A stretch of DNA of 64,000 nucleotides from positions 76,403-140,402 of the forward strand of contig JAHLWR010000009.1 in the NCBI GenBank assembly GCA_019057815.1. Reading direction: 5' to 3'. Position numbers and translations under genes: made by a program. Below the pieces are notes generated by a model that was not told where the DNA came from, did no database searches, and saw only the letters and a list, made by a program, of their open reading frames with translations. Origin of the DNA: Candidatus Heimdallarchaeota archaeon. GTDB lineage: Archaea; Asgardarchaeota; Heimdallarchaeia; Heimdallarchaeales; Heimdallarchaeaceae. Position 1 is the first letter of the stretch. Every line of letters starts with the position of its first letter. Below are positions 37,020 through 54,867 of this stretch, piece by piece.

Positions 37020-37095
37020 ATTGAAACAACCTTAACTAGTTTTTTTCTACTTTTTTGATTTTTCTTTTCATTTCTGTTTACTTTTTTATATTTCT

Positions 37096-38712: not shown

Positions 38713-38743
38713 GAAATCCTTGTTTTTTCAAATTTGATTATTA

Positions 38744-39952
38744 TTAACTTTTTTTCCTTCTTCTGTACATCAAAAATGCTGTTGCACTTCCAGTTATAAC
38801 AATTACACTACTTATAGGTATAACATAATACATCCAAGTATTTGATGACCCATAATCATCAGATGCTGCAGGGATGATATATTGTTCTAACAAAAATCTT
38901 CTTACGTCACTTAAAGTATCAAAACTTGTGAAAATAACAACAAGGTTCTTTGAAGGAACAACGAATATTCTTTGACCAGCCCAACCCCAAGCAGAAAAAT
39001 GTTTAATTGAACAGGTTCTACAAATCCACCATTGATATCCATAAGCATAATTCAGACTAGATGATGTAACAAGTCTATTTGTTGCTTCTTGTATCCACTC
39101 TTTAGGAACAACTTGTTGATCTTCCCAAGTTCCATTGTGCAAATATAAAAAACCTATCTTAGCCATATCGCGCGCTGTCAAGGAAAGAGCTTCACCCCCT
39201 CTTGTAATCCCCTGAGAATCGGTGTTCCAGGTATAATTTGTTATATTAAGATAGTTGAACAAATGATTCAACGCAAAAGCTTCCATTGAAATACCTGTCG
39301 CTTTTTGTATTATAGCAGACAAAAGGTGTGAACATCCCGTGTTATAGTTGAATTCAGTTCCAGGACTACTAACCATTGGTTTATCCAGAATATACTGAAT
39401 CCAATCTGACTCGGTTTTAACAGCAGTTAAATCATTAGCAGGACTAAAATAGCTAATATATTCATCCCATTCTAAACCAGATGTCATTGTAAGTAAATGC
39501 CAAATTGTTATGTTTTGTTTGTCTTCGTCCATATTCTCAAATGTTCTATTTGGAAAGAAATCTAGTATCTTTTGTTGAATTCCTTCTAAATATCCTTCAT
39601 AAATAGCAATACCAATCAATGTTGAAGTGATGCTTTTTGTACAAGAATATATTGGGTTTATTATATTGATTCGATCAGAACCATAATACGTTTCATCTAC
39701 TAAATAGCCATTACGAACTATCAGCATACTAGTTAGACCAATATTGTGGTTTTCTACGTAATCTTTTAGATCACTTATTAATTCGGGATTCATTCCTTGT
39801 TTTTTTAAGCTAGATGTTTGCCAACTGTCAGTTGGCCAATAATTGGGTCCTTCCAGATAAGACACAGGCAAACCTAATATTGAAATCGAGAAAAATAGAA
39901 CAATTAGAAATATACTCATAGTCACATATCTGCAATCTTTCGACTTTTTCAT
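38744..39952 (-). CDS. Membrane-anchored extracellular serine hydrolase (beta-lactamase/AmpC-like)
   Basis: SCTK, YNT and LLTMTSGL motifs; signal peptide; C-terminal TM followed by RRRKKS. Confidence 0.88.
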   Translation of the reverse strand: MKKSKDCRYVTMSIFLIVLFFSISILGLPVSYLEGPNYWPTDSWQTSSLKKQGMNPELISDLKDYVENHNIGLTSMLIVRNGYLVDETYYGSDRINIINPIYSCTKSITSTLIGIAIYEGYLEGIQQKILDFFPNRTFENMDEDKQNITIWHLLTMTSGLEWDEYISYFSPANDLTAVKTESDWIQYILDKPMVSSPGTEFNYNTGCSHLLSAIIQKATGISMEAFALNHLFNYLNITNYTWNTDSQGITRGGEALSLTARDMAKIGFLYLHNGTWEDQQVVPKEWIQEATNRLVTSSSLNYAYGYQWWICRTCSIKHFSAWGWAGQRIFVVPSKNLVVIFTSFDTLSDVRRFLLEQYIIPAASDDYGSSNTWMYYVIPISSVIVITGSATAFLMYRRRKKS

Positions 39953-40012
39953 AGTATCACCAAGTAAACACATTTTTGCTGAAACTAAAACAAATATTAC
40001 TGTTTAACATAT

Positions 40013-41305
40013 TTAAGATATATTGAGTCCTTGTTCGATTTTTTCAAGTACTGTAGTAGCTTGATCTTCTGTTATACATAATGGAGGTTGTAAACGGAGA
40101 ACATTTCCATAAATACCTCCCAAACCTATTATTACTCCTTCATTTTTCAGGTATTCAACCATCTTTTTCGCTTCATTTGAAGCAGGTGTTTTCGTTTGAG
40201 AATCTTTAACTAGTTCGATTCCAATCATTAATCCTTTTCCACGAATATCTCCAATAATTGGATTCTTTTGTTGCATATCTTTTAATCCATCTTTGAAATG
40301 CTTCCCAATCTTTACTGAGTTATCGACTAAGCTTTCTTCCTGAATTATAGCAATATTTTCTAATGCTACAGCACTACAGACAGGATTTCCACCATATGTA
40401 GAGAAAAAGTCTCCAAATGCAACACAATTAGCAATCTCACTAGTAACAATAGCTGCACCTATAGGCATACCACCACCAAGCCCTTTCGCTAATGCCATTA
40501 AATCAGGAGTAAGATTCCAATGTTCGCTAGCAAACATTTTACCTGTCCGACCAAAACCTGTCTGTACTTCATCTAGAATGAATAGTATTTCACGCTCTCT
40601 GAGTATCTTTGTGAGCGTTTTAAAATAAGAATCAGGTGGAATAATTATACCTCCTTCACCCAAAATAGGTTCCATAATAAAAGCTGCAACATCTCCAGCA
40701 GTGTGTCTATCAACTACTTTTTCTATAGCTAATGCTGCTTCAACACCACACTCTTCTGGAGATAGCTTTGATCTATAACAATAAGGAACAGGAGCATGAA
40801 CAACTCCAGGAGCATTAGCATATGTACTAAATCCTTTCTTATATTTAGCTTGACCTGTTAAACTTAATGAATAACCCAATCTACCATGGAAAGAGCACTC
40901 TAATGCAATTAGAGCTGAACCTGCTTTTCCTCTGGAGAAAGCATATTTCTTAACCAGCTTTACAGCATTTTCCACAGCTTCTGTACCACTATTACAAAGA
41001 TATGTAAATTTGAGATCACCCGGAGTTATCTCTGCAAGCTTCTCAACTAAAAGCGTCTGAGGTATGTTAAAGAATCGTCCTGAAGTATGAATTATTTTTG
41101 ACATCTGTTCTGATGCAGCTTCCACTAATCGACCATGGGCATGACCGACATTTGAAACGGAGATTCCAGCAAAACAATCAATATACTCGTTTCCTTCTAA
41201 GTCTTTGAGTAATGTCCCTTTTCCTTCTGTTAGTACAATAGGAACACGTTCATATCCTTGAACAAAGTACTTTTTATCGCTTTTCATTATCTCTTTAGAG
41301 TCCAT
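40013..41305 (-). CDS. Class-III PLP aminotransferase (omega-amino acid type)
   Basis: SGTEA, FHGR, EPILGEGG, DEVQTGFGRTG and AKG motifs. Confidence 0.92.
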   Translation of the reverse strand: MDSKEIMKSDKKYFVQGYERVPIVLTEGKGTLLKDLEGNEYIDCFAGISVSNVGHAHGRLVEAASEQMSKIIHTSGRFFNIPQTLLVEKLAEITPGDLKFTYLCNSGTEAVENAVKLVKKYAFSRGKAGSALIALECSFHGRLGYSLSLTGQAKYKKGFSTYANAPGVVHAPVPYCYRSKLSPEECGVEAALAIEKVVDRHTAGDVAAFIMEPILGEGGIIIPPDSYFKTLTKILREREILFILDEVQTGFGRTGKMFASEHWNLTPDLMALAKGLGGGMPIGAAIVTSEIANCVAFGDFFSTYGGNPVCSAVALENIAIIQEESLVDNSVKIGKHFKDGLKDMQQKNPIIGDIRGKGLMIGIELVKDSQTKTPASNEAKKMVEYLKNEGVIIGLGGIYGNVLRLQPPLCITEDQATTVLEKIEQGLNIS

Positions 41306-41347
41306 TTCTAACCACCTTAAATTGTTTATTTGGTTTTTATATTTTTC

Positions 41348-41376
41348 TGTTTAGATAAACATTAGTTTTCTAAACA
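41348..41376. promoter_or_regulatory. Palindromic operator, copy 1: TGTTTAG-N15-CTAAACA
   Basis: Perfect 7-bp inverted repeat between the divergent aminotransferase and mmsA genes; recurs at 51130 and 53107. Confidence 0.75.
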
Positions 41377-41451
41377 TTTATATTATCACTAGATATTTAA
41401 ATATTACTTGAAAGATAAAAGCAAAACTAATAAAGCTGGTAGAGTGAAATT

Positions 41452-42909
41452 ATGACTGTTGAGATACTAAAAAATTACATTAATGGTAAATGGGTGGAAT
41501 CAGAAACTGAAAAAACAAGAGATGTTATTAATCCAGCTAATGGAGAGTTACTAGCTCAAACACCTTTATGTACAAAAGAAGAAGCTCTATTTGCTATAAA
41601 AGCCGCAAAAGCTTCCTTTTGGAGATGGAGAACAACTCCTGCTCAATCACGAATAAGGTATCTTTACGATTTTCGTGATGCTTTGGAAGAAAATTTCGAT
41701 GAATTAGCTGAAATGGTCACGCTTGAACATGGCAAAACATTAGATGAGTCAAGAGGAGAATACCGTCGAACAATAGAGAATATTGAAGCTGCAACGCATA
41801 TCCCTTCTCTTCAAATGGGATATAATTTTGAAGATATAGCTTCCGGTATAGATGAAATGGTAATAAAACAGCCTTTAGGTGTATTTTTCTGTGTTGCACC
41901 TTTTAACTTTCCTGTAATGGTTCCAGCATGGTTTTGGCCATATGCAATAGCTACTGGAAACACTTATATTGTCAAACCTTCTGATCAATGCCCAATAAGC
42001 ATGGTAAGGCAATTTGAACTTCTGGATGAGATAGGTTTTCCAGATGGTGTTATAAATTTGTTGCATGGTGGCTCAGAGGTAGTCAGTACTTTAATTGAGA
42101 GTCCAGATACAGTAGGATTATCTTTTGTTGGTTCAACGAGGATTGGTAAGCTTCTCTATAAAAAATGTGGTGAGATGGGTAAACGAGTCCAGGTTCAAGG
42201 AGGGGCCAAGAACTTCATCACTATAATGCCTGACGCAGATATTGAACGAACTATTCCTAACATAATTACCTCCTTTTATGGTAATACGGGGCAACGTTGT
42301 CTTGCAGGCGGTGTATTGCTAACAGTTGGAGATATTCACGAACCTATAAAAAAATCACTTGTTGAAGCAGCTGTTCAAATAAAAATAGGGAAGGGAATAG
42401 ATGAAGACATACATATGGGTCCTCTTGCTTCAAAATCAGGAATGGACAAAGTCTTGAGTTATATTGAGAAAGGAATTGAGGAAGGGGCAGAACTAATACT
42501 TGATGGTAGGAATATCAAAGTAGACGGTACTCTCTCTGAAGGATTCTTTATCGGTCCTACAATTTTTGATAAAGTTACTTCTGATATGGTTATTGCTCAA
42601 GAAGAGATTTTTGGTCCAGTGATTCCTATAATCAATGTGAAAAATCTTGACGAAGCCATAGATATAATCAATGCAAATCGCTATGGTAATGCTTCATCTC
42701 TCTTCACTTCAAGTGGTAAAGCTGCTAGAGAATATCAATATCGTGTTCTAGCAGGCAATATAGGAATTAACATAGGTGTTGCTGCTCCAATAGCTACATT
42801 TCCATTTTCAGGAATGAAAGATAGCTTTAAGGGAGATTTACATGGGCAAGGGAGGAGTGGTATTGATTTCTTTACAGAAGACAAAGTAGTAATATCCCGA
42901 TGGCTTTGA
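41452..42909 (+). CDS. mmsA: CoA-acylating (methyl)malonate-semialdehyde dehydrogenase
   Basis: PFNFP, FVGS, GGAKN (no catalytic ELGG), GQRCLA, EEIFGP and FPFSG..DSF.GDLH motifs. Confidence 0.88.
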   Translation: MTVEILKNYINGKWVESETEKTRDVINPANGELLAQTPLCTKEEALFAIKAAKASFWRWRTTPAQSRIRYLYDFRDALEENFDELAEMVTLEHGKTLDESRGEYRRTIENIEAATHIPSLQMGYNFEDIASGIDEMVIKQPLGVFFCVAPFNFPVMVPAWFWPYAIATGNTYIVKPSDQCPISMVRQFELLDEIGFPDGVINLLHGGSEVVSTLIESPDTVGLSFVGSTRIGKLLYKKCGEMGKRVQVQGGAKNFITIMPDADIERTIPNIITSFYGNTGQRCLAGGVLLTVGDIHEPIKKSLVEAAVQIKIGKGIDEDIHMGPLASKSGMDKVLSYIEKGIEEGAELILDGRNIKVDGTLSEGFFIGPTIFDKVTSDMVIAQEEIFGPVIPIINVKNLDEAIDIINANRYGNASSLFTSSGKAAREYQYRVLAGNIGINIGVAAPIATFPFSGMKDSFKGDLHGQGRSGIDFFTEDKVVISRWL

Positions 42910-42953
42910 TAGATGGTTGCGAGAGAATGATATAGCTTGAAAAAGGTGATTAT

Positions 42954-43373
42954 GTGAGTTTAGGAACTTTAGGGGCAATACTGAAATATGCTATAAGTCT
43001 TGAGAACACAGCAATAATATTCTACGAAAAAGCTAGAACTGGTACAAGTGATCAAGAATTAATCGATGTATTTGAAAGCTTAATAATACAAAATCAAAAA
43101 AGTATCAAAAAATTGAAACGAACTCGTCGTGAACATACTATAGAGATGATTCTTGAGCCAATCAAAGGTTTAGAAAGAGCACAATTCATTATCAAAACTC
43201 AATCTTCAGAAGGAAGTGATGATAAATTATTACTTGTTTTAGCTAGAACGATGGAAACGAAAATTGAAGAATACTATATTGCTGTAGCTGAAAAAATAGG
43301 TTTTTTAGCTGAAGTTTCTTATACATTTCAACAGCTAGCTGAAAAACACGCAGAGAATCTTTCAATTTTATAA
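42954..43373 (+). CDS. Ferritin/rubrerythrin-like four-helix protein, metal site partly degenerate
   Basis: AISLE...FY and E...YY...EKH pattern; SD AGGTGA before the GTG start. Confidence 0.65.
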   Translation: MSLGTLGAILKYAISLENTAIIFYEKARTGTSDQELIDVFESLIIQNQKSIKKLKRTRREHTIEMILEPIKGLERAQFIIKTQSSEGSDDKLLLVLARTMETKIEEYYIAVAEKIGFLAEVSYTFQQLAEKHAENLSIL

Positions 43374-43473
43374 TTAGCATCTACCATTACCTTTTTCTTG
43401 TTTATATTTTAATATTTTTCAATTGTAATAAGATAACAAAAGTATTTATTAAAACAATCTAGATTCTTAACAA

Positions 43474-44544
43474 ATGAGTTTCTTGAAAACTATGCGCAAA
43501 CTCTCCATTCATTTTTTGGTTTACATTCTAATTGTAGGTTTAATTATGGCCTTCAGTGTTCTTATTTTTAAATTTGGTCCGCCAAAGATTGAATTCTATG
43601 ATTATAGTTGGTCTCATCTTGAACCTTATATTCCGGAAACTAATACAACGTACAGTGTTTTATTTGATCAACATTCACATACAAAATATAGTGATGGTAG
43701 GTTAACTGTTAAGCAAAATATTGAATGGCATATTACTATGGGTTTTACAGCTGTTGCAATAACAGATCATAATACTTTATCAAATTCTGATGAAATCAAA
43801 CTGTTAGCTGAAGAATACAAAAAGGAAATAATCGTTATTCAAGGAATGGAGTGGACAACAAGGAGAATTCATTTGAATTTTATTGGTATATCAGAATGGC
43901 ACCTTAAAATACCTATAAATCCTACTGACATTGAAATACAAGAAGCAATAATAGAGGTTCACAATCAAAACGGCATTGTTACAGCTAATCACCTTCCGTT
44001 TACAGAAAGAACAATAGGAAACAAAATGCCTACAAAAGAGGATCTTCTTTTATGGGGTGTTGATTTTATAGAAATTGTCAATGGAATGGATTTTGATGAG
44101 AAATCTTACTCTTTTTATCTTGAAAATAACGAAACTATAGGTCTAATTACAGGAACAGATATGCATAGTCCTGATAGTTCTGAAGGAGGAAGAGTCTATG
44201 CATGGACGACACTAAATACAGACAATTTCTCTAAAACAGCAATTATGGCTGAATTAAGAGATCATAATACTTCGTTCATTGTAAATCAGATGGGAGTTGA
44301 AATTCAAGGAATACATAAGATAAGTGCGACTTATATTGCTTTGCAACCTTTTTATGAACTTGGTGAGGGATTAGTATTTTATTATTTTAGATATGATAAT
44401 GTCAAAGATAATTTCAACAGAGTTATTGTATCAGTTTTCATTGTTTATTCCTTTGGAATATTCATTCTGATAGAATTTTTATTATATTTGAGAAATGTAC
44501 TTAAGTATAAACATAAGAAAAAACTTAAATCGAGTTTAAAGTGA
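43474..44544 (+). CDS. Membrane-anchored PHP-domain phosphoesterase
   Basis: HSHTKYSDG, TDHN, GMEW, NH and GTDMH motifs; TM helices at both ends. Confidence 0.85.
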   Translation: MSFLKTMRKLSIHFLVYILIVGLIMAFSVLIFKFGPPKIEFYDYSWSHLEPYIPETNTTYSVLFDQHSHTKYSDGRLTVKQNIEWHITMGFTAVAITDHNTLSNSDEIKLLAEEYKKEIIVIQGMEWTTRRIHLNFIGISEWHLKIPINPTDIEIQEAIIEVHNQNGIVTANHLPFTERTIGNKMPTKEDLLLWGVDFIEIVNGMDFDEKSYSFYLENNETIGLITGTDMHSPDSSEGGRVYAWTTLNTDNFSKTAIMAELRDHNTSFIVNQMGVEIQGIHKISATYIALQPFYELGEGLVFYYFRYDNVKDNFNRVIVSVFIVYSFGIFILIEFLLYLRNVLKYKHKKKLKSSLK

Positions 44545-44579
44545 TACTCATCAATCTTAAGAAGAGTTTTAGTTATTAT

Positions 44580-46751
44580 TCACGGTTTTTCTCTGTTCTC
44601 TTTTCTCTTCATTTCAAGATAGATTTCTAACTCTAAGAGTTCCTTAATAGGTAATGTTATCTGAGCAACATAATTAGATTTTTCATCAGTTTGAATGGTT
44701 GATGTAACAGCTTCTTCGATAAGAACTTCGTTTTTTACTTTTTCTGTAAATTCTTTCCATAATTTCATATATTTTTCATACTGATTATCAGATAAAAATA
44801 GATGATTCAAAGTGATTTCATCAGTGAAATTAAAGAGTTTTTTCACTTTTTCTAACTCTTTTTTACTAGCTGGTTCATCCTTCTTCGGATCTGGTTTCAA
44901 GAGAACCTGTTCTTCCAAAAAGTTTTGATATTTATCTATTAATAATGTAGTATCCCTAATTATTTTTATCATCAAACGAGGAATCATGAATGAATCAATA
45001 AAAGATCTAAATTGTCCTTCTTTTTGTTCTAAAGTATCTATGATGTTCGTATTTAGTGGTTGAATTAGATCGCTTCCTTTGGAGCTTAAAACATAATATT
45101 TTTTGAGCATTTGTGCTGAGCGTACTTGCTCTTCCCTGGACACTTTAATAAGATCCAGATTTGCTAATAGTTTTAAGTGCCCTGTCAAAGCTCCTTTAGT
45201 AATTTTAAGTTGATTACTAAGATTATTTAAGCTTCTTTCTTTCATAAAAAGAAGAAACATTATTCTAAAGGGTGTAGGACCCTTATTATACAAGTTAAGA
45301 AAGTCGCATAAATATTGTGTTCTTCTTAAAAGTTCCCGCGCTTTTGTAATATCAATTTCTGCTAATGCAGACTTACTAAGACTTAGGAACTGTTCTGCTG
45401 CAATAGAATAAGATTGCTGGAATTGTACAGAAGAGAGAGTGTCAGAAAGTTCAGTTAATTCACTAACTAAAATACCGTCACCAAAGTATTTTTTTATCTC
45501 CACAGCAAGGATTTCACTATAATTAACCATGGCAATTTTTGTGAAAAGGTAGTTAACTATTTCTTCTTCTGTTATTAGTTGAAGAATTACTTGAGCTTTC
45601 TTACGGTTTTTTATACTTTTACCAGACTTTAAGATCAAAGCTTCAGCTAAACGATAAGTCTGATTGAATATCTTGTTTTTATATTGATTATTTATTTCTT
45701 GTAATCTTCTTAAATAAGTATCAATATCAGCAGAACTAAGTTTTCTTTTTGTAATGAAGTGTATTAAATCAAAAAGAACATAGACTTCTGGATCAACATT
45801 TTCGACTTTTTGGGCATAATTTAGAGCTTTTTCCAAAGTGTCTAGCACTAATTGAGGATCTTCTAAATTCTCAAAAATTAAACTTAAACCCATCAATGAA
45901 AAAACTATTCCAAATTTGTAGTTTATGCTTTGATTAATGAGTAAAGATTCCTCATAATGAGTTTGAGCTTGTTTTAAATCATCTTTTTCTCTATGGATGT
46001 CACCTAAATTGAGCAATGTCCAAGAAATATCCTGTTGATTACCTATTTTCTCTCTGATTTTTAAACTTCTACTTAAGCACTTTTGAGCTTTATCAATTTC
46101 TCCTTTGTTTAGCCATGAATGTCCCAAACTAAATAATGAATGCGCTAAACTCCATTGATTCACCATTTTTTCTCTCATATCTAGACTTTTTTGGAAATTA
46201 TCTATTGCATTATCTATATCTCCTCTTTCACTATAAACCCAGCCTAAAAGATAATATGCTCGAGCCAAATGTGATGAATCTGCAATTTCTTCACACAAAT
46301 AGAAATTCTCTTGAGCAAAAATATAAGCTTGATCTATATCTCCCTTAGCAGTATCTACATATGTTCTATTGACAAGTAATTTAGACTTTCTTATGTTTAT
46401 TCCTTCAAGATTGCAGCTATTAATAAGGTCTTTAGTAGTTTGTACTAAACCTGAAGCATATTCATATTTATTCAAACGATAATTTGCATAGGTTTCAAAC
46501 GATAAAGCATCAATTTCTAGTAATATATCTTCTTGCTTCTTTGATTCTTTGCGAAGTTCTATTGATAATGTAATTGTTTTACTATACTCTCCTAAACTAG
46601 TAAAAACTTCACACTTCTGGTTTAGCAATGTTAAATTCTCTCTACCTGTCAATATGTCCTCTTTCTGAAATTTGTTTATTACATCAAGTGCTTCTTTATA
46701 TGAGCCTTCTGCAATGAGATTTTTAATTTTTATTGATTGATTCTCATTCAT
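44580..46751 (-). CDS. TPR-repeat protein with C-terminal winged HTH (putative regulator)
   Basis: About 40-aa TPR repeats (LGWVYSERGD, LGHSWLNKGE, LGDIHREKDD); ArsR-like SLNNLSNQLKITKGALTGHLKLL...KKYYVLS. Confidence 0.8.
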   Translation of the reverse strand: MNENQSIKIKNLIAEGSYKEALDVINKFQKEDILTGRENLTLLNQKCEVFTSLGEYSKTITLSIELRKESKKQEDILLEIDALSFETYANYRLNKYEYASGLVQTTKDLINSCNLEGINIRKSKLLVNRTYVDTAKGDIDQAYIFAQENFYLCEEIADSSHLARAYYLLGWVYSERGDIDNAIDNFQKSLDMREKMVNQWSLAHSLFSLGHSWLNKGEIDKAQKCLSRSLKIREKIGNQQDISWTLLNLGDIHREKDDLKQAQTHYEESLLINQSINYKFGIVFSLMGLSLIFENLEDPQLVLDTLEKALNYAQKVENVDPEVYVLFDLIHFITKRKLSSADIDTYLRRLQEINNQYKNKIFNQTYRLAEALILKSGKSIKNRKKAQVILQLITEEEIVNYLFTKIAMVNYSEILAVEIKKYFGDGILVSELTELSDTLSSVQFQQSYSIAAEQFLSLSKSALAEIDITKARELLRRTQYLCDFLNLYNKGPTPFRIMFLLFMKERSLNNLSNQLKITKGALTGHLKLLANLDLIKVSREEQVRSAQMLKKYYVLSSKGSDLIQPLNTNIIDTLEQKEGQFRSFIDSFMIPRLMIKIIRDTTLLIDKYQNFLEEQVLLKPDPKKDEPASKKELEKVKKLFNFTDEITLNHLFLSDNQYEKYMKLWKEFTEKVKNEVLIEEAVTSTIQTDEKSNYVAQITLPIKELLELEIYLEMKRKENREKP

Positions 46752-46787
46752 TGTGATAACCTCAAACGAGAAACTAATGATTTATAT

Positions 46788-48053
46788 TTATTCCATATTA
46801 TTAATATTCTTGTATCTAATACATGCTACAAAGTAATCTTCCTCAACCTTTTCAAGTTGTGGGTCTATTTTGAAGCAATCACCTTCTGCATATAGACATC
46901 GATCTTGAAATCTACATCCTTCTGGTATGTAAATACCACTAGGAACTTCTCCTTTAATTGGTAACTCCTCTGTTCTTCTAGCATCTGGGTCAGGTTTAGG
47001 AACTGCAGCAATAAGGGCTTGAGTATATGGATGTAATGGATTCTTAATAAGTTGCTCAGTTTCACCTTGTTCTACAATTCGCCCTAGATACATAACAGCT
47101 ATACGATCGCACATGTTACGTGCTAGAGCAAGATCATGAGTAATAAAGAGAAAAGCTGTTCCATGTAATTTAGTTAGTTCTTGCATTATTTTAAGCACTC
47201 CAACACGTATAGATACATCTAACATGGATACAGGTTCATCAGCAACTATAAATTCAGGATTTAATATGAATGCTCTAGCTACTCCTACTCTTTGCCTTTG
47301 ACCCCCACTCAGTTCATGAGCGTATCTATCGAGAAAATCCCTAGCTGGAACAAGCCCAACAGCTTCCATTTCAGCAATAACTTTTTCTTCGATAACAGCT
47401 TCATCTCTATCAATTTTTAAAAGTCTTAATGGTTCTGCTACAATATCTAGAACCCTAAATCGAGGACTTAAAGAATCATAAGGATTCTGGAAAACTATCT
47501 GAATATCTTTTCGTAATTTTTTAATTTCTCTTTTAGAAAGACTAGCTGTGTTAATTCCTTTAAAATAAATTTCCCCACTTGTTTTATCAAGAAGATGAAG
47601 TAGTAGAAAACCAGTCGTGGATTTCCCACACCCACTTTCACCTACTAATCCAAAGGTTTCACCACGCATTATCTTAAAAGAAACACCATCTACTGCATGA
47701 ACATAAAGTTGTTCTCCCCCTGATAATATTCGTTTCAAGAAAGCTATGTTTGATTTCCATCTATCTTTCGTAAATAGTGCTCTATATGTTTTTGATATTA
47801 TAGTAGCTATAGAGTGATTAAAGCACTTGAATCCACTAGTCAATTTGTTTTGGATAATTATTATAAATGGTTCATCATTTCTTTTTAGATTTATCCAAGT
47901 TTCCTTTAAAAATGGTTTTCGAAGAAAGTTCTTTATAGATTGAGTGATTGCTGATATTTTTTCTGTTGGAATTAAACTAGCAAGAAAACCTTTCATTACT
48001 GGAAACAATTTTTTCAAATTAACTGCTTCTATTACTATATTATCATCAGTCAT
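46788..48053 (-). CDS. oppF: Oligopeptide ABC ATPase (OppF/DppF) with N-terminal insertion
   Basis: GESGCGKST, LSGGQRQR, DEP, HPYT and C-terminal Cys motif; start overlaps the oppD stop. Confidence 0.9.
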   Translation of the reverse strand: MTDDNIVIEAVNLKKLFPVMKGFLASLIPTEKISAITQSIKNFLRKPFLKETWINLKRNDEPFIIIIQNKLTSGFKCFNHSIATIISKTYRALFTKDRWKSNIAFLKRILSGGEQLYVHAVDGVSFKIMRGETFGLVGESGCGKSTTGFLLLHLLDKTSGEIYFKGINTASLSKREIKKLRKDIQIVFQNPYDSLSPRFRVLDIVAEPLRLLKIDRDEAVIEEKVIAEMEAVGLVPARDFLDRYAHELSGGQRQRVGVARAFILNPEFIVADEPVSMLDVSIRVGVLKIMQELTKLHGTAFLFITHDLALARNMCDRIAVMYLGRIVEQGETEQLIKNPLHPYTQALIAAVPKPDPDARRTEELPIKGEVPSGIYIPEGCRFQDRCLYAEGDCFKIDPQLEKVEEDYFVACIRYKNINNME

Positions 48054-49107
48054 TATCTTCCTCATTCTCCTTGTTCTGATACAGATGGCATGCTACATAT
48101 CCATCTTTAGTCTGTGTATTAATTGGTTCATCTATTCTGCATATTTCCATAACTTGCGGACAACGAGGATGGAATCGGCACCCAGATGGTGGATTAATTA
48201 AATCCGGGGGAGAACCCTTAATCTCTATCAACGCTTTCTTAGGTCCAGTAACACTTGGAAAAGCTTCAATCAAAGCTTTTGTATATGGGTGCAAAGGTTC
48301 CTTAAAAAGCGTCCGTAGTTTGCCATATTCAACCACTTTTCCAGCATACATAATAGCAAGAGTTTCGCAAACTTCAGCTATAACAGATAGATCATGAGTA
48401 ATCATAATCATAGAAAGGTTGAACTTTTTTTGTAATTCTTTTGTTGCTTTAAGAACTTGTGATTGTACAATAACATCTAAAGCAGTCACAGGTTCATCAG
48501 CTATGACTATATCAGGATTGCTTATCAAAGCCATTGCTATGAGTGCTCTCTGTTTCATACCTCCGCTAAGTTGGTGTGGATAGTCCATAGCTCGTGATGA
48601 ATCGATCCCTACGGTTTCAAGAATATTGATTACTCGCTCCCAAGCTTCATCTTCATCAGTTTCAGGTTCATGGATTTTTATTACTTCCAAAATTTGATTA
48701 CCTACTCTATGAACGGGATTCATCGCATTCATTGCCCCTTGAAAGATCATAGTAATATGATGGCCTCTAATTTTTTGCATTTCTTCTTCTGTTAAATCTA
48801 ATATGTTTTTGGAAATTTCTCGTTCACTCTTCCGCCTAAATAACCTTTGTAAGCGAGATCTAGGACCTTCTAAATCCATAAAAGCTTGAGCTCTATCGTA
48901 CAATATCTCTCCTTCAACTATTCTACCTGGTGTTTGTATCATCCTCATGATGGAAAGACATGTAGTTGTTTTTCCACACCCACTTTCTCCTGCAAGTCCT
49001 AGTACTTCTCCTTTTTGCAGACTCAAGCTAACATCATCAACAGCTTTGACTGTCCCTGCGCGGATTTCATAATATGTTTTTAAATTCTTAATCTCAAGTA
49101 AAGCCAT
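48046..49107 (-). CDS. oppD: Oligopeptide ABC ATPase (OppD/DppD)
   Basis: GESGCGKT, LSGGMKQR, HPYT and CRFHPRC motifs. Confidence 0.92.
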   Translation of the reverse strand: MALLEIKNLKTYYEIRAGTVKAVDDVSLSLQKGEVLGLAGESGCGKTTTCLSIMRMIQTPGRIVEGEILYDRAQAFMDLEGPRSRLQRLFRRKSEREISKNILDLTEEEMQKIRGHHITMIFQGAMNAMNPVHRVGNQILEVIKIHEPETDEDEAWERVINILETVGIDSSRAMDYPHQLSGGMKQRALIAMALISNPDIVIADEPVTALDVIVQSQVLKATKELQKKFNLSMIMITHDLSVIAEVCETLAIMYAGKVVEYGKLRTLFKEPLHPYTKALIEAFPSVTGPKKALIEIKGSPPDLINPPSGCRFHPRCPQVMEICRIDEPINTQTKDGYVACHLYQNKENEEDND

Positions 49108-49111
49108 AGTA

Positions 49112-50059
49112 TTACCTCTGTCTAAGCCTTGGGTTCACAATTTCGTCGAAAGCCATACCAACGAAAGCAAAACTCAATGTGATCAATCCAATAGCTATAC
49201 CTGGGGGCCAGAAAAGCCACCAATTTCCTGAAGCGAAAGCTGCATGAACTTGTGCATTATGTAGCATTTGACCTAGAGTCCAAGTTAGAGGGTCACCTAA
49301 GCCTAAATAGGATAAGAATGCCTCATAAAGTATTGCTTGCCTCATCGAAGTTATAATCATTGTCAACATTAAGGGGAAAACATTTGGTAAAATGTGTTTA
49401 AAGATGATATAAGTTCTACTTGCACCTGAAGCTTTTGCACCTGTGATAAAAGCTCTTTGTTTAAGCGATAAAGCTTGACTACGTATTAATCTTGCTGAAA
49501 CGGGCCAGAAAACGATAATATAGATAGATGCTATAATGAACCATTGAGGAACAATGTCAATCCACGGAATTTTATCAACTAATAATGGAGCGATAGAAGC
49601 AAGAACGAGCATTAATGGTAATGCAGGAAGAACTAGAATAACGTCAGTAATACGCATGATTAAAGTATCAACCCAACCACCGATATATGCACTTGCTACC
49701 CCAATTGTAGTACCAAAGAGAACTGTTAAACTACCAGCAACTACACCAACAAGCAACGAAACACGTAGACTTTCTAGAAGAATAGTAAAAACATCTTGTC
49801 CATAACCATTAGTACCTAAAAGATGATCCCAATTAGGTCTAACATTTCTATCAATAGTAAAAAAACCGTAAGGGTCATAATCTGTTATATCTGGTCCTAT
49901 AATAGCTAATATAATAATAGTAACCATCATGACTAAACCAATAACACCCATCCAGTTTCTGCTGAAAATTTTTGTTGTGGAACCCCATTTTCTCAGACGA
50001 CGTTTCAGATTATTTGGATTTACAACCATTCTAAACAGATTTGTAGCTTTAATTGCCAT
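49112..50059 (-). CDS. oppC: Oligopeptide ABC permease (OppC/DppC)
   Basis: HLLGT..GQD, EAA-like loop, HILPN and NPRLR motifs. Confidence 0.92.
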   Translation of the reverse strand: MAIKATNLFRMVVNPNNLKRRLRKWGSTTKIFSRNWMGVIGLVMMVTIIILAIIGPDITDYDPYGFFTIDRNVRPNWDHLLGTNGYGQDVFTILLESLRVSLLVGVVAGSLTVLFGTTIGVASAYIGGWVDTLIMRITDVILVLPALPLMLVLASIAPLLVDKIPWIDIVPQWFIIASIYIIVFWPVSARLIRSQALSLKQRAFITGAKASGASRTYIIFKHILPNVFPLMLTMIITSMRQAILYEAFLSYLGLGDPLTWTLGQMLHNAQVHAAFASGNWWLFWPPGIAIGLITLSFAFVGMAFDEIVNPRLRQR

Positions 50060-50070
50060 TTTTATATCTC

Positions 50071-51063
50071 CTATTCACTCCTTATCCTAGGGTCAACAAA
50101 ACCATAGAGAAGTTCAGCAAAAAGTAAACCCAGCAATGTTAAACCTGCTATAATTATAAATGAACCCTGAAGAAGAGGATAGTCCTTATATAGAATCGCT
50201 TCATATAGCAATCTTCCAGTTCCAGGATAGGTAAACACTGTTTCTACAAGAACTGAACCCCCAATTAAACCACCTATGCTCATACCTATAGATGTTATAA
50301 CTGGGAGAATAGCATTTCTAAAACCATGTCTGAAAAGTATTTGTTTGTCATTTAAACCTTTAGCTTTTGCAGTTTGAATGAAATCTTCTGTTTTAACATT
50401 AATAAGATTACCACGCATGAACCACGACCAACCTAGAATCCCTGCAATAACTAAAACTGTCAATGGAAGAACTAAATGCCATAATACGTCTAATATCACT
50501 CGAAAAGTACCTAAACTTTCTATGCCTGGAGTTTTAGCACCAATGAAAGGAAAATAAAAGGGCCAATTGTGTATTCGAGCTTGGTATCCAAAGATAGAAA
50601 TGAAAATCATTCCAACAAAAAACAAGGGAATAGCGTTGTATACATTATATGTTAAGACAAATGCAGTATCTGTCTTTGACCCTCTTCTCCATGCAATCAA
50701 AGATCCTAAAAGGATACCTATAACTGCATTAATAATGAATGCTGAACCGAGTAAGAGAAGAGTCCACGGAAGTCTTTCTCCAATTATTTCACTAACAGGT
50801 CTTTTATGAAGAAAAGAATACCCTAAATCACCCTGAAATAGATTCTTCAAGAAGATTAAATATTGTTTCCATAAAGATTCATCCAGTCCCCACCTATCTA
50901 ATAAAGCATCTCTTACTTCAGGTGGAACGCGAGGATCTGTAGCAAAAATATTTGCAGGATTACCTGGCATAACATGATAGATAAAAAATACAACTGTTAT
51001 AGCTGCAAAATACGCAACTACTGCAAAAAGAACTTTTTTTGCAATATAACTTTTTAATCCCAT
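50071..51063 (-). CDS. oppB: Oligopeptide ABC permease (OppB/DppB)
   Basis: MPGNP, GDLGYS, TAKAKGL, DYPLLQG and DPRI motifs; ATG at 51063. Confidence 0.92.
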   Translation of the reverse strand: MGLKSYIAKKVLFAVVAYFAAITVVFFIYHVMPGNPANIFATDPRVPPEVRDALLDRWGLDESLWKQYLIFLKNLFQGDLGYSFLHKRPVSEIIGERLPWTLLLLGSAFIINAVIGILLGSLIAWRRGSKTDTAFVLTYNVYNAIPLFFVGMIFISIFGYQARIHNWPFYFPFIGAKTPGIESLGTFRVILDVLWHLVLPLTVLVIAGILGWSWFMRGNLINVKTEDFIQTAKAKGLNDKQILFRHGFRNAILPVITSIGMSIGGLIGGSVLVETVFTYPGTGRLLYEAILYKDYPLLQGSFIIIAGLTLLGLLFAELLYGFVDPRIRSE

Positions 51064-51102
51064 TAATATAACACCATCTCTATACTTCAACTACTTGAAA
51101 TA

Positions 51103-51119
51103 CTTTTAAATTTTTCGGG
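51103..51119 (-). promoter_or_regulatory. BRE + TATA promoter of oppB
   Basis: Minus strand reads CCCGAAAAA-TTTAAAAG, about 40 bp upstream of the ATG. Confidence 0.6.
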
Positions 51120-51129
51120 AAAAGATATA

Positions 51130-51158
51130 TGTTTAGTAAAAAAGTGACAATCTAAACA
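51130..51158. promoter_or_regulatory. Palindromic operator, copy 2: TGTTTAG-N15-CTAAACA
   Basis: Perfect inverted repeat (extends to TATGTTTAG/CTAAACATA), 10 bp upstream of the oppB BRE. Confidence 0.75.
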
Positions 51159-51177
51159 TAATTGTACAATTAAAATT

Positions 51178-51226
51178 AAAAAAAGAATGGACCTAGGATT
51201 TGGATTATTCAAACCCTAGATTCATT
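51178..51226 (-). terminator. Stem-loop plus U7 terminator after oppA
   Basis: AAUGAAUCUAGGGUUUG pairs with CAAAUCCUAGGUCCAUU (G-U pairs, one mismatch), followed by CUUUUUUU. Confidence 0.7.
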
Positions 51227-51256
51227 TAGTATATTTTTATGGCAACAATTTTGTTT

Positions 51257-52999
51257 TTACTTTCGTCTTTTTCTGAAGTATGTTATTCCAAGAATAAAGC
51301 CTACAGCTAAAACTGCAGTCATTATTTCGAATCCTGGAGCACCTTCATCTGGTTCAATTAGGTGAACTGCCATCCATGATTGCCAGTTGTCTGGACCTGT
51401 AGTATTACCCATAATCCAGCCAGTGAATTTATCTGTTCTGTAAAGGGTTACACCACCAGTAATTCTTATTGGTAAGTATGGTAAATCCTCTGCTATAAGT
51501 ACTTGAGCTTCATCTAGTTTTTGTCTAACGATTGCTTCATCAGTTTCATAAAGGACTTCATCAACTAATGTTGTAACTTCCCAACGAACAGAACTGTTCC
51601 AACCTGGAATGTTTACATTATCTGATCCCCACCATCTATTTGCGCTGAACATCCAATATGCCCAACTTGGGTGGAAATCTGACCAAAAGCCTGTCCAGCC
51701 AAGGAAAGCCCAATCATAGTCATATTTACTTGCATATGAACCACCAGGTCCACCTACTGTTGACCATAGTATATCCCAAATGACTGGTTGAACAGTTATT
51801 GAGATATTCAGAGCCAACATATAGTTTTGAATCATACGAGCAGTATCAACTGACTCCTGATATTCAGCGCTAACTCCTAGATTAAATTTTAGGGGGTCAC
51901 CTAGACCATCTTCACGGACTTTGTCATTATCGGTATCTAAGAATCCTAGATCATCAAGCAGTTGATTAGCCAGAGCTACATCATAGGCGTACTGTTCGAT
52001 GTCTGGGTTATAATATGCACCATATGGTAAGCTCATTGAAGCAGGAGCTACAAGTCCTCTTCCATAACCTGCAATTTCCATAATTTCAGAACGATTGATT
52101 CCATGTAGAACTGCTTTTCTAAAATTCACTTCATCATTTGGATAACGTCGTTGGTTCAAACCTAAGTACATAATATAGTCATTAAGATATTCATGAATTT
52201 CAATGTTGGGATCACTTTTAGCAACATTTTCTAATTCAGGTGGAACTGCACCTAGTAATTCTATATCTCCTACACTTAGAGCGTAGTAACCAGCTTCAAT
52301 TTCTCTGATGATTTGTACGATTTTTGTCTCAACCCATGGTCCATCAAGGTAATATTGATCATTTCTTGAGAATCTGAAAAAGGAGCCGTGAGACCATTCC
52401 TCTAATACGAAAGGACCACAACCTACAGGTTCCTCATTAGCAAATGTGTAAATATCAGTTATATCTTCCCAAATATGTTGAGGTACTATCCAAGTTGTAG
52501 CAAAATCATATAAAACATCTGCAGGTTTTGGTCCCCACCAGAATTCTACTTGAATTTGTGTTTCACTTAGGACAGTTATGTCAAAAATCTCATCAAAAAG
52601 CCAGCTGCGTCGTGGAATTGCAGGATCAGTCCATAGCAAATACCATGTATAATTTACATCATAGATATCCATAAGTTCACCGTCTGACCAGTAAACATCT
52701 TCTCTAATTGTAAATATCCACTTTTCGAGAGTTTCATTATGTGTCCAACCTGTGCATAACACAGGAGTTGGTTGATTGTTTATGTCATTCTGTACTAGAG
52801 CATCATATATGTGCCCAATTATATAACTTTCATAGACTGATCCCCAAGTAAAGGGATTCAGAGTCAGTGCGTCAGAGCCCATTGGAACGGTAAGAGTACC
52901 GCCAACAAAGGGATCTTGTGCAAGAACGGTAGAATAGGGTGAAAATGTCATAATGAATGCCATAAAAATTGTTGAGGTAATTAACAATTTTTTATTCAA
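51257..52999 (-). CDS. oppA: Peptide ABC substrate-binding protein (family 5) with PGF-CTERM-like anchor
   Basis: Signal peptide; WSDG and PVGCGPF motifs; C-terminal APGFE + TM + RKRRK. Confidence 0.92.
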   Translation of the reverse strand: MNKKLLITSTIFMAFIMTFSPYSTVLAQDPFVGGTLTVPMGSDALTLNPFTWGSVYESYIIGHIYDALVQNDINNQPTPVLCTGWTHNETLEKWIFTIREDVYWSDGELMDIYDVNYTWYLLWTDPAIPRRSWLFDEIFDITVLSETQIQVEFWWGPKPADVLYDFATTWIVPQHIWEDITDIYTFANEEPVGCGPFVLEEWSHGSFFRFSRNDQYYLDGPWVETKIVQIIREIEAGYYALSVGDIELLGAVPPELENVAKSDPNIEIHEYLNDYIMYLGLNQRRYPNDEVNFRKAVLHGINRSEIMEIAGYGRGLVAPASMSLPYGAYYNPDIEQYAYDVALANQLLDDLGFLDTDNDKVREDGLGDPLKFNLGVSAEYQESVDTARMIQNYMLALNISITVQPVIWDILWSTVGGPGGSYASKYDYDWAFLGWTGFWSDFHPSWAYWMFSANRWWGSDNVNIPGWNSSVRWEVTTLVDEVLYETDEAIVRQKLDEAQVLIAEDLPYLPIRITGGVTLYRTDKFTGWIMGNTTGPDNWQSWMAVHLIEPDEGAPGFEIMTAVLAVGFILGITYFRKRRK

Positions 53000-53077
53000 T
53001 TTTTTTCAATCCTTTGTTTTTTTTCTTTTGTGTTCTTTGAGACAATTTCAAAGACACTTTTTTTATTTGTTTAAATA

Positions 53078-53094
53078 TATATAAGATTTTCGGG
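53078..53094 (-). promoter_or_regulatory. BRE + TATA promoter of oppA
   Basis: Minus strand reads CCCGAAAAT-CTTATATA; same layout as the oppB promoter. Confidence 0.6.
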
Positions 53095-53106
53095 TAAAAA
53101 AGTTAA

Positions 53107-53135
53107 TGTTTAGCAAAAATGTTATAAATTAAACA
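53107..53135. promoter_or_regulatory. Palindromic operator, copy 3: TGTTTAG-N15-TTAAACA
   Basis: One mismatch; lies between divergent oppA and the serine hydrolase, 12 bp upstream of the oppA BRE. Confidence 0.72.
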
Positions 53136-53170
53136 TAATGTATATAACATATAAGAAAAGATGACTAATT

Positions 53171-54607
53171 GTGGTAACTATGGATATGAAGAAATTTAGA
53201 AAAAAGTTTGAACAAGAAGCAGTTAAAGTTATGCGTGATTTTAAAGTCCCAGGAATGTCTATTTTTGTCACGAAAGATGGTAAAACTACGTATCATAGAG
53301 CTTTTGGTATAAGAGAAAAAGGAGATGTAAAACCTGCTACAACTGATTCATTATATGGGGTTTCATCAATCACCAAATCAGTTACATGTTTGGCTATTTT
53401 ACAACTTCATGAAGCTCAAAAGTTGAATATTCACGATCCTATCTCAAAATATGTACCTGTAGATTTAATGTTTAAAGATACTCCAATAACAGTTCATCAT
53501 CTAATGTCACACGCTTCTGGAATACCTTCTTTGATGACTTTCTACTTTTCGCAAATGAATCAAGAATTATATGAACCTGTTCTTCCTAAACTCCCATTAG
53601 GTAATTGGGACGATTTTTATTTCCATCTTAATGATGCAAAGACTGAAGTTCTTAGCCCTCCAAGCAAAAAATACTATTACTGGAATGCAGGATTTACTTT
53701 ACTTGGTCAAATAGTAGAAAAAACAAGCGGACAACTATTTGAAGAATATGTTAAGGAGAACATTTTGAAGCCTTTAGAAATGAAAAGAAGCACTTTTTCT
53801 AAAGACGATGTAGAACGAGATGATGATGTTTCAAAAGGATTTAACTTTGAGCTTAAGGATAAAAAGGTGATTAGAAAACCTAAAAACCTTCTAACCGATT
53901 TGTTTATAGCTGGAGCAGGAGGATTAATTTCGAGCGTAAAAGAGATAACTAACTATTTACTTTGTCACTTGAATAAAGGAGATTTCAATGGAAAGCAGCT
54001 GTTGAGTGAAGAATTGATTAAAGAAATGTGGAAACCCCATAATAAAAATCTTACATCTCAGTATCATGAGTATTGTCCAGGTTCTATTTCATCCTATGGT
54101 TATGGATTTAGGGTTTATGATAATTACTACGGATACACATTAGTTACTCATGGAGGAGTCTCTGGAGTTACAGGTGGTCAAGTTGCATTTATCCCTGAAT
54201 TGAATTTGACTTTTGCTCAATTATACAACGTATCATGGTTGCCTACTCATTTAATGCATACAGCTTTAGCCTTGCTGTTAGGTAAAGATCCAGAAAAAGT
54301 TATGCCTTATCATATCCGAAAGAAGCATTACAAAAAACTCTGCGGAAGATATGATGCATATAAGAAAACTATAACAATGGAAATTAAGGAAAAAGAGAGT
54401 ATCCTTTACTTAGAAGGTAGTTGGCAAGAAAAATTTAAACTCCCTTTAATTCCTAAAAATGATGACCCTGAAGTTATGGATTTCTATGTGATTTTACCTC
54501 AAGGTAATATGGATGTTCCTTTCACCAAACAAGATGATGGTCACATCACTTTTGATTATGAAAGACACCTCATGCATAAAAAAACAATAGAATTAGAGGA
54601 AGATTAA
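53171..54607 (+). CDS. Cytoplasmic serine hydrolase, beta-lactamase family (Pab87-like peptidase)
   Basis: SITK, YWN and HGG motifs; extra C-terminal beta domain; no signal peptide. Confidence 0.88.
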   Translation: MVTMDMKKFRKKFEQEAVKVMRDFKVPGMSIFVTKDGKTTYHRAFGIREKGDVKPATTDSLYGVSSITKSVTCLAILQLHEAQKLNIHDPISKYVPVDLMFKDTPITVHHLMSHASGIPSLMTFYFSQMNQELYEPVLPKLPLGNWDDFYFHLNDAKTEVLSPPSKKYYYWNAGFTLLGQIVEKTSGQLFEEYVKENILKPLEMKRSTFSKDDVERDDDVSKGFNFELKDKKVIRKPKNLLTDLFIAGAGGLISSVKEITNYLLCHLNKGDFNGKQLLSEELIKEMWKPHNKNLTSQYHEYCPGSISSYGYGFRVYDNYYGYTLVTHGGVSGVTGGQVAFIPELNLTFAQLYNVSWLPTHLMHTALALLLGKDPEKVMPYHIRKKHYKKLCGRYDAYKKTITMEIKEKESILYLEGSWQEKFKLPLIPKNDDPEVMDFYVILPQGNMDVPFTKQDDGHITFDYERHLMHKKTIELEED

Positions 54608-54867
54608 GAATAAAATATTGTTAATCCTAATTTTCTCTTTTTTCCTCTAACTCTTTTTTCATTGATATTTGAATATAATAGCAACGACATCCATGAAATT
54701 ACTTCTGTCCCAAATTATATCTTGTTAGCATTAAGTAGTCTGATTCCTTACTGTTCATTAGACGAAGGTTTCTTTATTTCGTACGAGATGAAATACTCCT
54801 TCAAGTGACTTTTTGTTGTGTAGTCAAAGCTTTTTTATTCGTACTTTACTATATTATTCTGGAAATA

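Follow-up and report, generated by a model that had tools for sequence, protein, structure and literature searches.

Three copies of a 29-bp palindrome, TGTTTAG-N15-YTAAACA, occur in a 64,000-nt stretch of the genome of a Candidatus Heimdallarchaeota archaeon, at the promoters of a peptide (Opp) transporter and of neighbouring catabolic operons. The whole stretch is referred to here as the window (C30:76403-140402, from a 3.74-Mb metagenome-derived assembly with 32.8% G+C). These palindromes are probably the operators of one dedicated, locus-specific factor, for which the best candidate is the protein encoded 36 nt behind oppF, a fusion of tetratricopeptide repeats (TPR) with a winged helix. 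The position of the sites inclines us to activation as the mode of control.

An exact pattern search of the window finds the palindrome at 41348-41376, 51130-51158 and 53107-53135 (copies 1, 2 and 3), in each case between genes. Copy 1, to which no strand is assigned, separates the aminotransferase operon from the operon that begins with mmsA. Copy 2 precedes the oppB promoter on the minus strand, with its promoter-proximal half-site at 51130-51136, and copy 3, also read on the minus strand, lies in the divergon of oppA and a Pab87-like gene, with its proximal half towards oppA at 53107-53113 and TTAAACA as its distal half. The half-sites of copies 1 and 2 are perfectly palindromic, and the single deviation in copy 3, a T for C at 53129, leaves 41 of the 42 half-site bases matching across the set. 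An earlier sequence-only reading of this DNA had described three intergenic 29-bp copies with 15-bp spacers and one deviating base in 42, and had placed the half-sites 22 bp apart; the search returns the same copies, and 22 bp is the distance from centre to centre. In the A/T-rich spacer, runs of T recur about 10 bp apart, at positions 8-10 and 18-21.

The motif is rare in the window and in the genome. No match appeared in 100 dinucleotide-preserving shuffles of the window, and with a spacer of 15 and at most one mismatch the whole assembly holds five sites, namely the three operator copies and two on contig C12. One of these two lies inside a gene and the other overlaps a gene start, being intergenic by the crude 100-aa open reading frame (ORF) mask that was used for the genome-wide calls. 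The one-mismatch site at C12:145630, which overlaps the start of a 114-aa ORF, was set aside as a chance occurrence, as it has no BRE/TATA context (TFB recognition element and TATA box) and scores below 12 bits on the matrix described below. All 20 two-mismatch sites with spacer 15 in the assembly fall in coding DNA and are background, and exact half-site pairs at any other spacer length from 8 to 23 are absent from the assembly. A position weight matrix (PWM) was trained on 28 operator sites from other genomes, with the sites of this genome excluded. It gives copy 3 a score of 42.8 bits, copy 2 38.3 and copy 1 27.0, and nothing else among the 7.5 million positions scanned in the genome exceeds 12 bits. 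The score of copy 1 is that for the orientation towards mmsA; towards the aminotransferase it is 22.8 bits. Because only the three copies exceed 12 bits and the shuffles gave none, the motif is rarer in coding or shuffled DNA; equal frequency there is what the sequence-only reading had named as telling against its proposed regulon. These results support the view that the three palindromes are genuine cis-regulatory elements rather than chance occurrences, and that they form a small regulon confined to the locus.

The sites also stand in a regular relation to predicted core promoters. In an archaeal promoter a purine-rich BRE immediately precedes an A/T-rich TATA box, which lies about 25 nt upstream of the transcription start site. 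In the oppB promoter core (51103-51119, minus strand), the BRE-like CCCGAAAA at 51112-51119 is followed by the TATA-like ATTTAAAAG at 51103-51111, with the operator ending at 51130. The oppA core (53076-53094, minus strand) repeats CCCGAAAA at 53087-53094 and continues with TCTTATATATA at 53076-53086, the operator ending at 53107. For the mmsA operon, a putative TATA-like TTTAAATA lies at 41396-41403 on the plus strand, past the end of copy 1 at 41376 and without a BRE of the CGAAA type. The gap from the end of the site to the start of the TATA element is thus 18 nt for oppB, 20 nt for oppA and 19 nt for mmsA, close to the 19-21 bp first estimated from the sequence. On the aminotransferase side, a putative combined BRE/TATA-like element, GAAAAATATAAAAACC (41332-41347, minus strand), abuts copy 1 at 41348; the operator directly adjoins GAAAAATATAAAAA there, in line with the earlier statement that this site touches the BRE. 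The Pab87-like gene has a TATA-like TATATAAC at 53141-53148 on the plus strand, 5 nt past the distal half of copy 3 (53135), and no BRE was assigned to it; judged by eye, relatives have AT-rich sequence with TATA-like stretches in this flank. The genome itself supports the assignment of these elements to BRE and TATA, as the frequency of TATA-like hexamers is highest 20-40 nt ahead of start codons and that of CGAAA 30-50 nt ahead of them. Of 1544 upstream regions of this genome, only 2 contain CCGAAA with a TATA-like box behind it, so that the combination is not a generic promoter form here.

Conservation of the two opp operators was assessed in 60 relative genomes, 25 of which belong to the sister genus of the same family. 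Orthologs of oppA (50-59% identity) are present in 15 of these 25, and none was found in the only further genome from the genus of the present one (89% complete). The sister-genus locus runs from the Pab87-like gene through the divergent oppA to oppB, oppC, oppD, oppF and the gene of the TPR-winged-helix protein, with a PHP hydrolase, the 139-aa ORF, an aldehyde dehydrogenase and an aminotransferase nearby, and the proteins of the locus are only about 50-80% identical across relatives. The operator is found upstream of oppA in 14 orthologous divergons and in the oppA-oppB spacer in 16 of 16 orthologous loci; 28 of these 30 sequences are distinct, and since the genomes are related to one another the counts are not independent events. 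Read along opp transcription, the promoter-proximal half is CTAAACA without change in 29 of the 30 sites, and the distal half varies as YGT(T/A)TA(G/A). Mean column identity is 99-100% in the proximal and 88-93% in the distal half-site, 64% in the spacer of the oppB sites and 87% in that of the oppA sites, and 57-66% in the 40-nt upstream flanks; the oppB promoter core reaches 96% across the 16 loci. The geometry is kept as well. The distance from the site to the start of CCGAAA is 11 nt in each of the 16 oppB promoters and 12-13 nt in each of the 14 at oppA; a TATA-like box (TTTAAAA or TTATATA) comes after it, and the predicted BRE/TATA arrangement of CCCGAAA with one of these two boxes is retained in all 30 promoters of the opp loci.

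When 31 genomes were searched with an oriented degenerate pattern, matches appeared at opp loci only, two per sister-genus genome and three in the present one. The same pattern gave none in 23 genomes where the opp locus was not found, and a reversed control gave eight scattered matches. Two other oppA-like genes of relatives, which have no regulator gene directly downstream, are likewise without the motif. Two exact matches outside opp loci, on G058:C17 and G030:C126, were dismissed as chance, as no genes of the locus lie near them and about 16 strand matches are estimated for 200 Mb. The weakest operator copy among the relatives is that upstream of oppA in G022 (L088:3581-3748), which has drifted in both halves (CATATAG ... 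TTAAACA, 4 mismatches) and retains the BRE, the TATA box and a leader hairpin.

It could be asked whether such inverted repeats are operators at all, as they might instead be hairpins, relics of the inverted repeats of a mobile element, recombination sites flanking oppA, or chance products of AT-rich DNA. The repeats are indeed inverted, and copies 2 and 3 flank oppA within about 55 bp of similar sequence. Chance is excluded by the shuffles, the genome scan, the PWM and the 31-genome pattern search. A hairpin would have a stem of only seven A/T-rich pairs around a 15-nt loop and finds no match in Rfam; moreover, among the 30 sites no change in the distal half is matched by a compensating one in the proximal half, which disfavours a hairpin and favours sequence-specific recognition. 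By family scans the locus encodes neither a recombinase nor a transposase, and the position and orientation of the sites relative to BRE and TATA are fixed across two genera. All of these non-operator readings together are, in our judgement, highly improbable.

If the palindromes are operators, the nearest candidate for their binder is the 723-aa product of the gene at 44580-46751 on the minus strand. In the combined evidence of Pfam, AlphaFold2 (AF2) and Foldseek, it consists of a TPR superhelix (residues ~1-423), a linker, an ArsR-type winged helix (493-562) and a helical C-terminal region. The gene starts 36 nt after oppF behind a Shine-Dalgarno-like GAGGT, with little room for a promoter of its own; the shortness of this gap suggests that oppBCDF and the regulator gene are co-transcribed. 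Pfam assigns TPR families to residues 70-330 and HTH_5 to residues 495-536. An AF2 monomer model built from 28 family members shows the TPR superhelix over residues 1-423 with a predicted local distance difference test score (pLDDT) mostly above 90, then a disordered linker and two helices, and then the three helices (493-503, 508-515 and 519-531) and the beta-hairpin wing (strands 535-542 and 549-555) that characterise a winged helix, at a pLDDT of about 80-89. Folded alone, the C-terminal module is matched by Foldseek to Kfla_6221 (4g6q, function unknown), PH1932, Phr, CzrA, SmtB and NolR, and the winged-helix matches to CzrA, SmtB, NolR and HlyU have TM-scores (TMt) of 0.6-0.7. The TPR part resembles LGN/Pins and the pheromone complex of Rap (TMt 0.70-0.73) and has a profile match to NprR (E ~5e-9), a similarity that is generic.

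The family is small and narrowly distributed. A search of 5.8 billion clustered proteins with residues 440-723 yields only 30 homologs, mostly of ~700-760 aa with two shorter and one partial, and PF01022 is precomputed in most of them; those with names come from Heimdall, Asgard-group or Promethearchaeota metagenome-assembled genomes (MAGs). A scan of the genome contigs recovered the same 15 Heimdall MAGs together with three stand-alone homologs, without adding any lineage. This genome has one copy of the fusion, and about eight TPR paralogs (22-28% identity) were discarded as similar regulators, as the winged-helix module is absent from them by Pfam and by the module profile. In every relative that has both genes on one stretch, the regulator gene follows oppF as the last of the oppBCDF cluster. 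No other DNA-binding gene was detected in the conserved locus by family scans, and the intergenic gaps leave no room for one. The 139-aa ORF, considered as an alternative regulator, has only weak ferritin/rubrerythrin-like matches and no helix-turn-helix (HTH). The protein at 44580-46751, singled out from the letters alone at the outset, is thus the only plausible DNA-binding protein of the conserved locus, and its winged helix is backed by both sequence and AF2.

Stand-alone homologs of the C-terminal module, of about 255 aa, occur in another family of the class. With HTH_5 scores of 36.7 and 30.6 bits they are clear ArsR-type proteins, and their genes lie before a P-type cation ATPase gene (L082:1000-1270, L083 upstream of 8852 on the minus strand, L106 and L108), which looks like the arrangement of a local regulator. 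Their promoters contain two compact TTAACGTTAA-like palindromes 42-43 bp apart, the proximal of which abuts a TATA-like box; these are probably the operator of the stand-alone proteins themselves. With compact palindromes and no long-spacer sites, these promoters neither favour nor contradict the binding geometry proposed below.

The operator might be real and yet be bound by a factor encoded elsewhere, such as an Lrp/AsnC or another ArsR-type protein, leaving the TPR-winged-helix protein with some other role. The genome does encode stand-alone winged-helix relatives (on C31, C1 and C16) and other regulators, and the link between protein and site is indirect. A global factor, however, should have further sites, which makes a dedicated local binder the likelier one; none were found in the 3.74 Mb, nor outside the opp loci in the 31 genomes. 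In the genomes searched, the operator also turned up only where the locus of the TPR-winged-helix protein is present, with one exception in the fragmented genome G015, and that locus has no other DNA-binding gene. A binder from outside the locus is accordingly rated improbable.

For the favoured TPR-winged-helix protein, the following mechanism may be proposed. The factor would bind as a homodimer, with one ArsR-type winged helix per 7-bp half-site; as the half-site is not itself symmetric, each probably receives a single winged helix. Spaced 22 bp centre to centre, both half-sites would lie on the same face of the DNA, with the recognition helices ~75 Angstrom apart, and an extended dimer would be needed. 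From the proximal half-site, 11-13 nt upstream of the BRE, the factor would control oppA and the oppBCDF-regulator operon, and because its own gene lies within that operon it would control its own synthesis. In this genome it would also control the mmsA operon, and probably the Pab87-like and aminotransferase genes on the divergent sides, where the TATA-like box adjoins the other half-site. Once bound, the factor would recruit or stabilise TFB/TBP, giving activation and, for its own gene, positive autoregulation. The TPR domain would act as the sensor, and the gene context suggests imported peptides as a possible signal. We lean to activation because characterised archaeal activators, among them Ptr2, TFB-RF1, TrmBL1 and SurR, have their sites upstream of the BRE.

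The same operator and the same protein could also make up a repressor released by its ligand, acting through occlusion of TFB/TBP, through bending, or through looping between the copies that lie 1977 bp apart around oppA. The BRE and TATA elements of the opp promoters are near consensus and very strongly conserved, the site abuts a TATA-like box on the divergent side of the Pab87-like and aminotransferase genes, and the closest winged-helix structural matches, Phr, CzrA and SmtB, are repressors. A regulator gene inside its own operon is also usual for ligand-released repressors such as TrmB. Yet the site at oppA, oppB and mmsA ends at least 11-13 nt before the BRE and overlaps neither BRE nor TATA nor the expected transcription start, and an upstream placement of this kind is the activator position in Ptr2, TrmBL1, SurR and TFB-RF1. 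Repression is therefore regarded as a serious possibility, though not a likely one.

Several observations weigh against a dedicated TPR-winged-helix activator. The fusion protein passes the HTH_5 cut-off of 22 bits only narrowly, at 22.3, and the C-terminal 160 residues, which might hold a dimer together, fold with low confidence in AF2. The regulator and the opp locus occur together in 14 relatives, with one exception each way, both in fragmented MAGs; because regulator and operator are physically linked, this co-occurrence is linkage and not independent evidence. The near-consensus BRE/TATA elements of the opp promoters would fit a strong promoter that is repressed as well as one that is activated. 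Finally, copy 1 has no support from relatives, though it scores far above background on the PWM derived from them. The sequence-only reading had envisaged one large factor, dimeric or binding in tandem, and had pointed to archaeal activators that bind just upstream of BRE/TATA: a site upstream of the BRE/TATA of oppA, oppB and mmsA speaks for activation, while near-consensus BRE/TATA elements, which an activator does not require, speak against it.

By analogy, the system is most like the RRNPP/AimR regulators and the local regulators of archaeal ABC transporters such as TrmB. TrmB of Thermococcales is encoded inside the ABC-transporter operon that it controls and acts on a palindromic operator at the operon promoters. 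The present regulator likewise lies inside the transporter operon that it would control, with palindromic operators at the promoters. It differs in that the sensor domain is unrelated, and in that the TrmB operator (TGM) is a compact palindrome that overlaps or follows BRE/TATA when repressing, as opposed to the widely spaced half-sites upstream of them here. With the activators Ptr2, TFB-RF1, SurR and TrmBL1 (in its activating mode) the likeness is one of site position, immediately upstream of the BRE at a fixed distance, with no homology to the regulator shown.

With AimR and the RRNPP(A) proteins PlcR, NprR, Rgg and PrgX, the candidate shares a TPR superhelix and an HTH in one polypeptide, and as in that group its gene is tied to an Opp system, which makes peptide import a possible link. 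AimR, a dimer of TPR-HTH subunits, recognises two inverted boxes of 6 bp with 25 bp of AT-rich spacer between them, and its peptide compacts the dimer so that the operator is no longer spanned (PMC6458997). The operator here is built on the same plan, two short inverted boxes around a long AT-rich spacer, with boxes of 7 bp and a spacer of 15 bp rather than 25, and within an archaeal host with BRE/TATA promoters. As in a long-spacer operator of this type, spacer identity at the oppB sites is 64% against 93-99% in the boxes. AimR-type binding entails one TPR-HTH dimer with recognition helices about 75-90 Angstrom apart, a figure set here beside monomer models only. The domain order is reversed, with the TPR N-terminal and the DNA-binding domain C-terminal, the latter being an ArsR-type winged helix (residues 493-562) instead of an XRE-type HTH, and no propeptide gene adjoins, as the 36-nt gaps on both sides fit no small ORF. 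Since the protein has a C-terminal ArsR-type winged helix, no N-terminal XRE-type HTH and no adjacent propeptide gene, it is not a member of RRNPP. The archaeal ArsR-like proteins Phr and PH1932, which combine a winged helix with a C-terminal helical extension, are among the best Foldseek matches (E 4e-5 to 1e-4), with low TM-scores (0.35) outside the winged helix, no TPR domain and, for Phr, the function of a heat-shock repressor; Phr recognises a palindromic site (PMC10746257).

Our literature search found no description of an archaeal RRNPP-like system or of a Heimdall opp regulator. It is conceivable, although we consider it doubtful, that Asgard archaea independently built an RRNPP/AimR-like circuit, in which a cytoplasmic TPR-winged-helix receptor would sense peptides imported by the Opp transporter whose transcript it shares, change the reach of its two DNA-binding domains on the long-spacer operator and switch on or off uptake, its own synthesis and, in this genome, amino-acid catabolism.

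The site at the catabolic genes differs from the opp sites in its conservation. The oppA and oppB sites, as set out above, are conserved in 14-16 orthologous loci, and so the footprint expected in related genomes was found for these two, but none of the 11 orthologous upstream regions has the aminotransferase/mmsA site. In front of these 11 aldehyde dehydrogenase genes the best match to the motif has 4-6 mismatches, so copy 1 is lineage-specific. A closer relative is known through protein P0001, which is 94% identical. Read towards the aminotransferase, copy 1 has 12 of 15 spacer bases in common with the oppB-promoter operator of G018 (G018:C20:28844-28872); among the common bases is a third, inner half-site, TGTTTAT, and together with the proximal half it makes up the tight palindrome TGTTTA-N2-TAAACA. 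This likeness may reflect a common origin or an alternative binding mode.

In three sister-genus genomes (G014, G016 and G029; L085:10508-15936, L086 and L087) the regulator gene is followed after about 55 bp by an mmsA-like dehydrogenase gene of the same strand and, further downstream, by an aminotransferase gene, which looks like an operon fusion in place of a separate operator copy. A new operator copy here and an operon fusion in three relatives mean that the coupling of catabolism to the transporter recurs; in the remaining relatives neither an operator copy nor an operon link of mmsA to the transporter was seen. The proposed co-regulation of import and catabolism is thus supported by the three operators of this genome, and with copy 1 absent from relatives it is a feature of the lineage.

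The gene calls of the sequence-only reading were confirmed by family matches to Aminotran_3, an MMSDH-subfamily dehydrogenase, oppA/B/C/D/F and a Pab87-type hydrolase. oppB-oppC-oppD-oppF occupy 46788-51063 on the minus strand up to the 36-nt gap before the regulator gene, oppB starting at a conserved ATG (51063) in an ORF that extends to a TTG at 51090. oppA, for a solute-binding protein of the SBP_bac_5 family, lies at 51257-52999 on the same strand with a conserved TTG start (52999), and a terminator-like hairpin with a T-tract (51191-51221, minus strand) follows it upstream of copy 2. Near the predicted 5' end of the oppA mRNA is a stem-loop, TCTTTGA ... TCAAAGA (53030-53058, minus strand), which is kept in 14 of 14 orthologous leaders. 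Its variants are G.U-compatible on the sense strand and include one double change from G-C to A-U (G014/G016), which points to an RNA hairpin, for stability or translation control, rather than a second DNA operator. Rfam has no family in 40000-55000, either for this stem-loop or for the palindromes. Some relatives (G012, G018, G011, G027 and G022; L013, L014, L015, L024 and L088) have an extra ORF of ~0.4-0.75 kb between the oppB-type promoter and oppB, and in G011, G012, G018 and G027 there is a further gap of ~1.1-1.6 kb between oppB and oppC.

Divergent from oppA, a Pab87-type serine hydrolase (Beta-lactamase and Pab87_oct) is encoded at 53171-54607 on the plus strand, with a likely start at ATG 53180. 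On the far side of the regulator gene, 41452-44544 (plus strand) holds the mmsA-like gene for a CoA-acylating methylmalonate-semialdehyde dehydrogenase (TIGR01722, the MMSDH subfamily of aldehyde dehydrogenases; 507.7 bits, cut-off 448.5), the 139-aa ORF and a PHP/CehA-McbA-type metallohydrolase. Genes for a class-III aminotransferase (Aminotran_3), a beta-lactamase-fold protein, an Amidohydro_3 protein and an M20 peptidase are closely spaced on the minus strand at 35559-41305 and possibly form one operon. Judged by family names only, the set of D-peptidase-like Pab87-type hydrolase, second beta-lactamase-fold protein, Amidohydro_3, M20 deacylase, aminotransferase and mmsA would fit the use of unusual peptides containing D- or beta-amino acids.

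To our knowledge, very few pairs of transcription factor and operator have been defined for Asgard archaea. The locus described here would add a small circuit to them, consisting of a 29-bp operator with an exact BRE/TATA geometry and one candidate regulator, whose family is confined to Heimdall-group MAGs and whose targets would be three operators in this genome and two in its relatives. It may offer a route to the control of archaeal promoters by a large repeat-domain factor. It also suggests how a regulon can grow, as one lineage has linked its mmsA genes to the transporter through a new operator copy and another through an apparent operon fusion. If it is true that the TPR domain senses imported peptides, the system would be a convergent archaeal counterpart of the bacterial peptide-sensing regulators.

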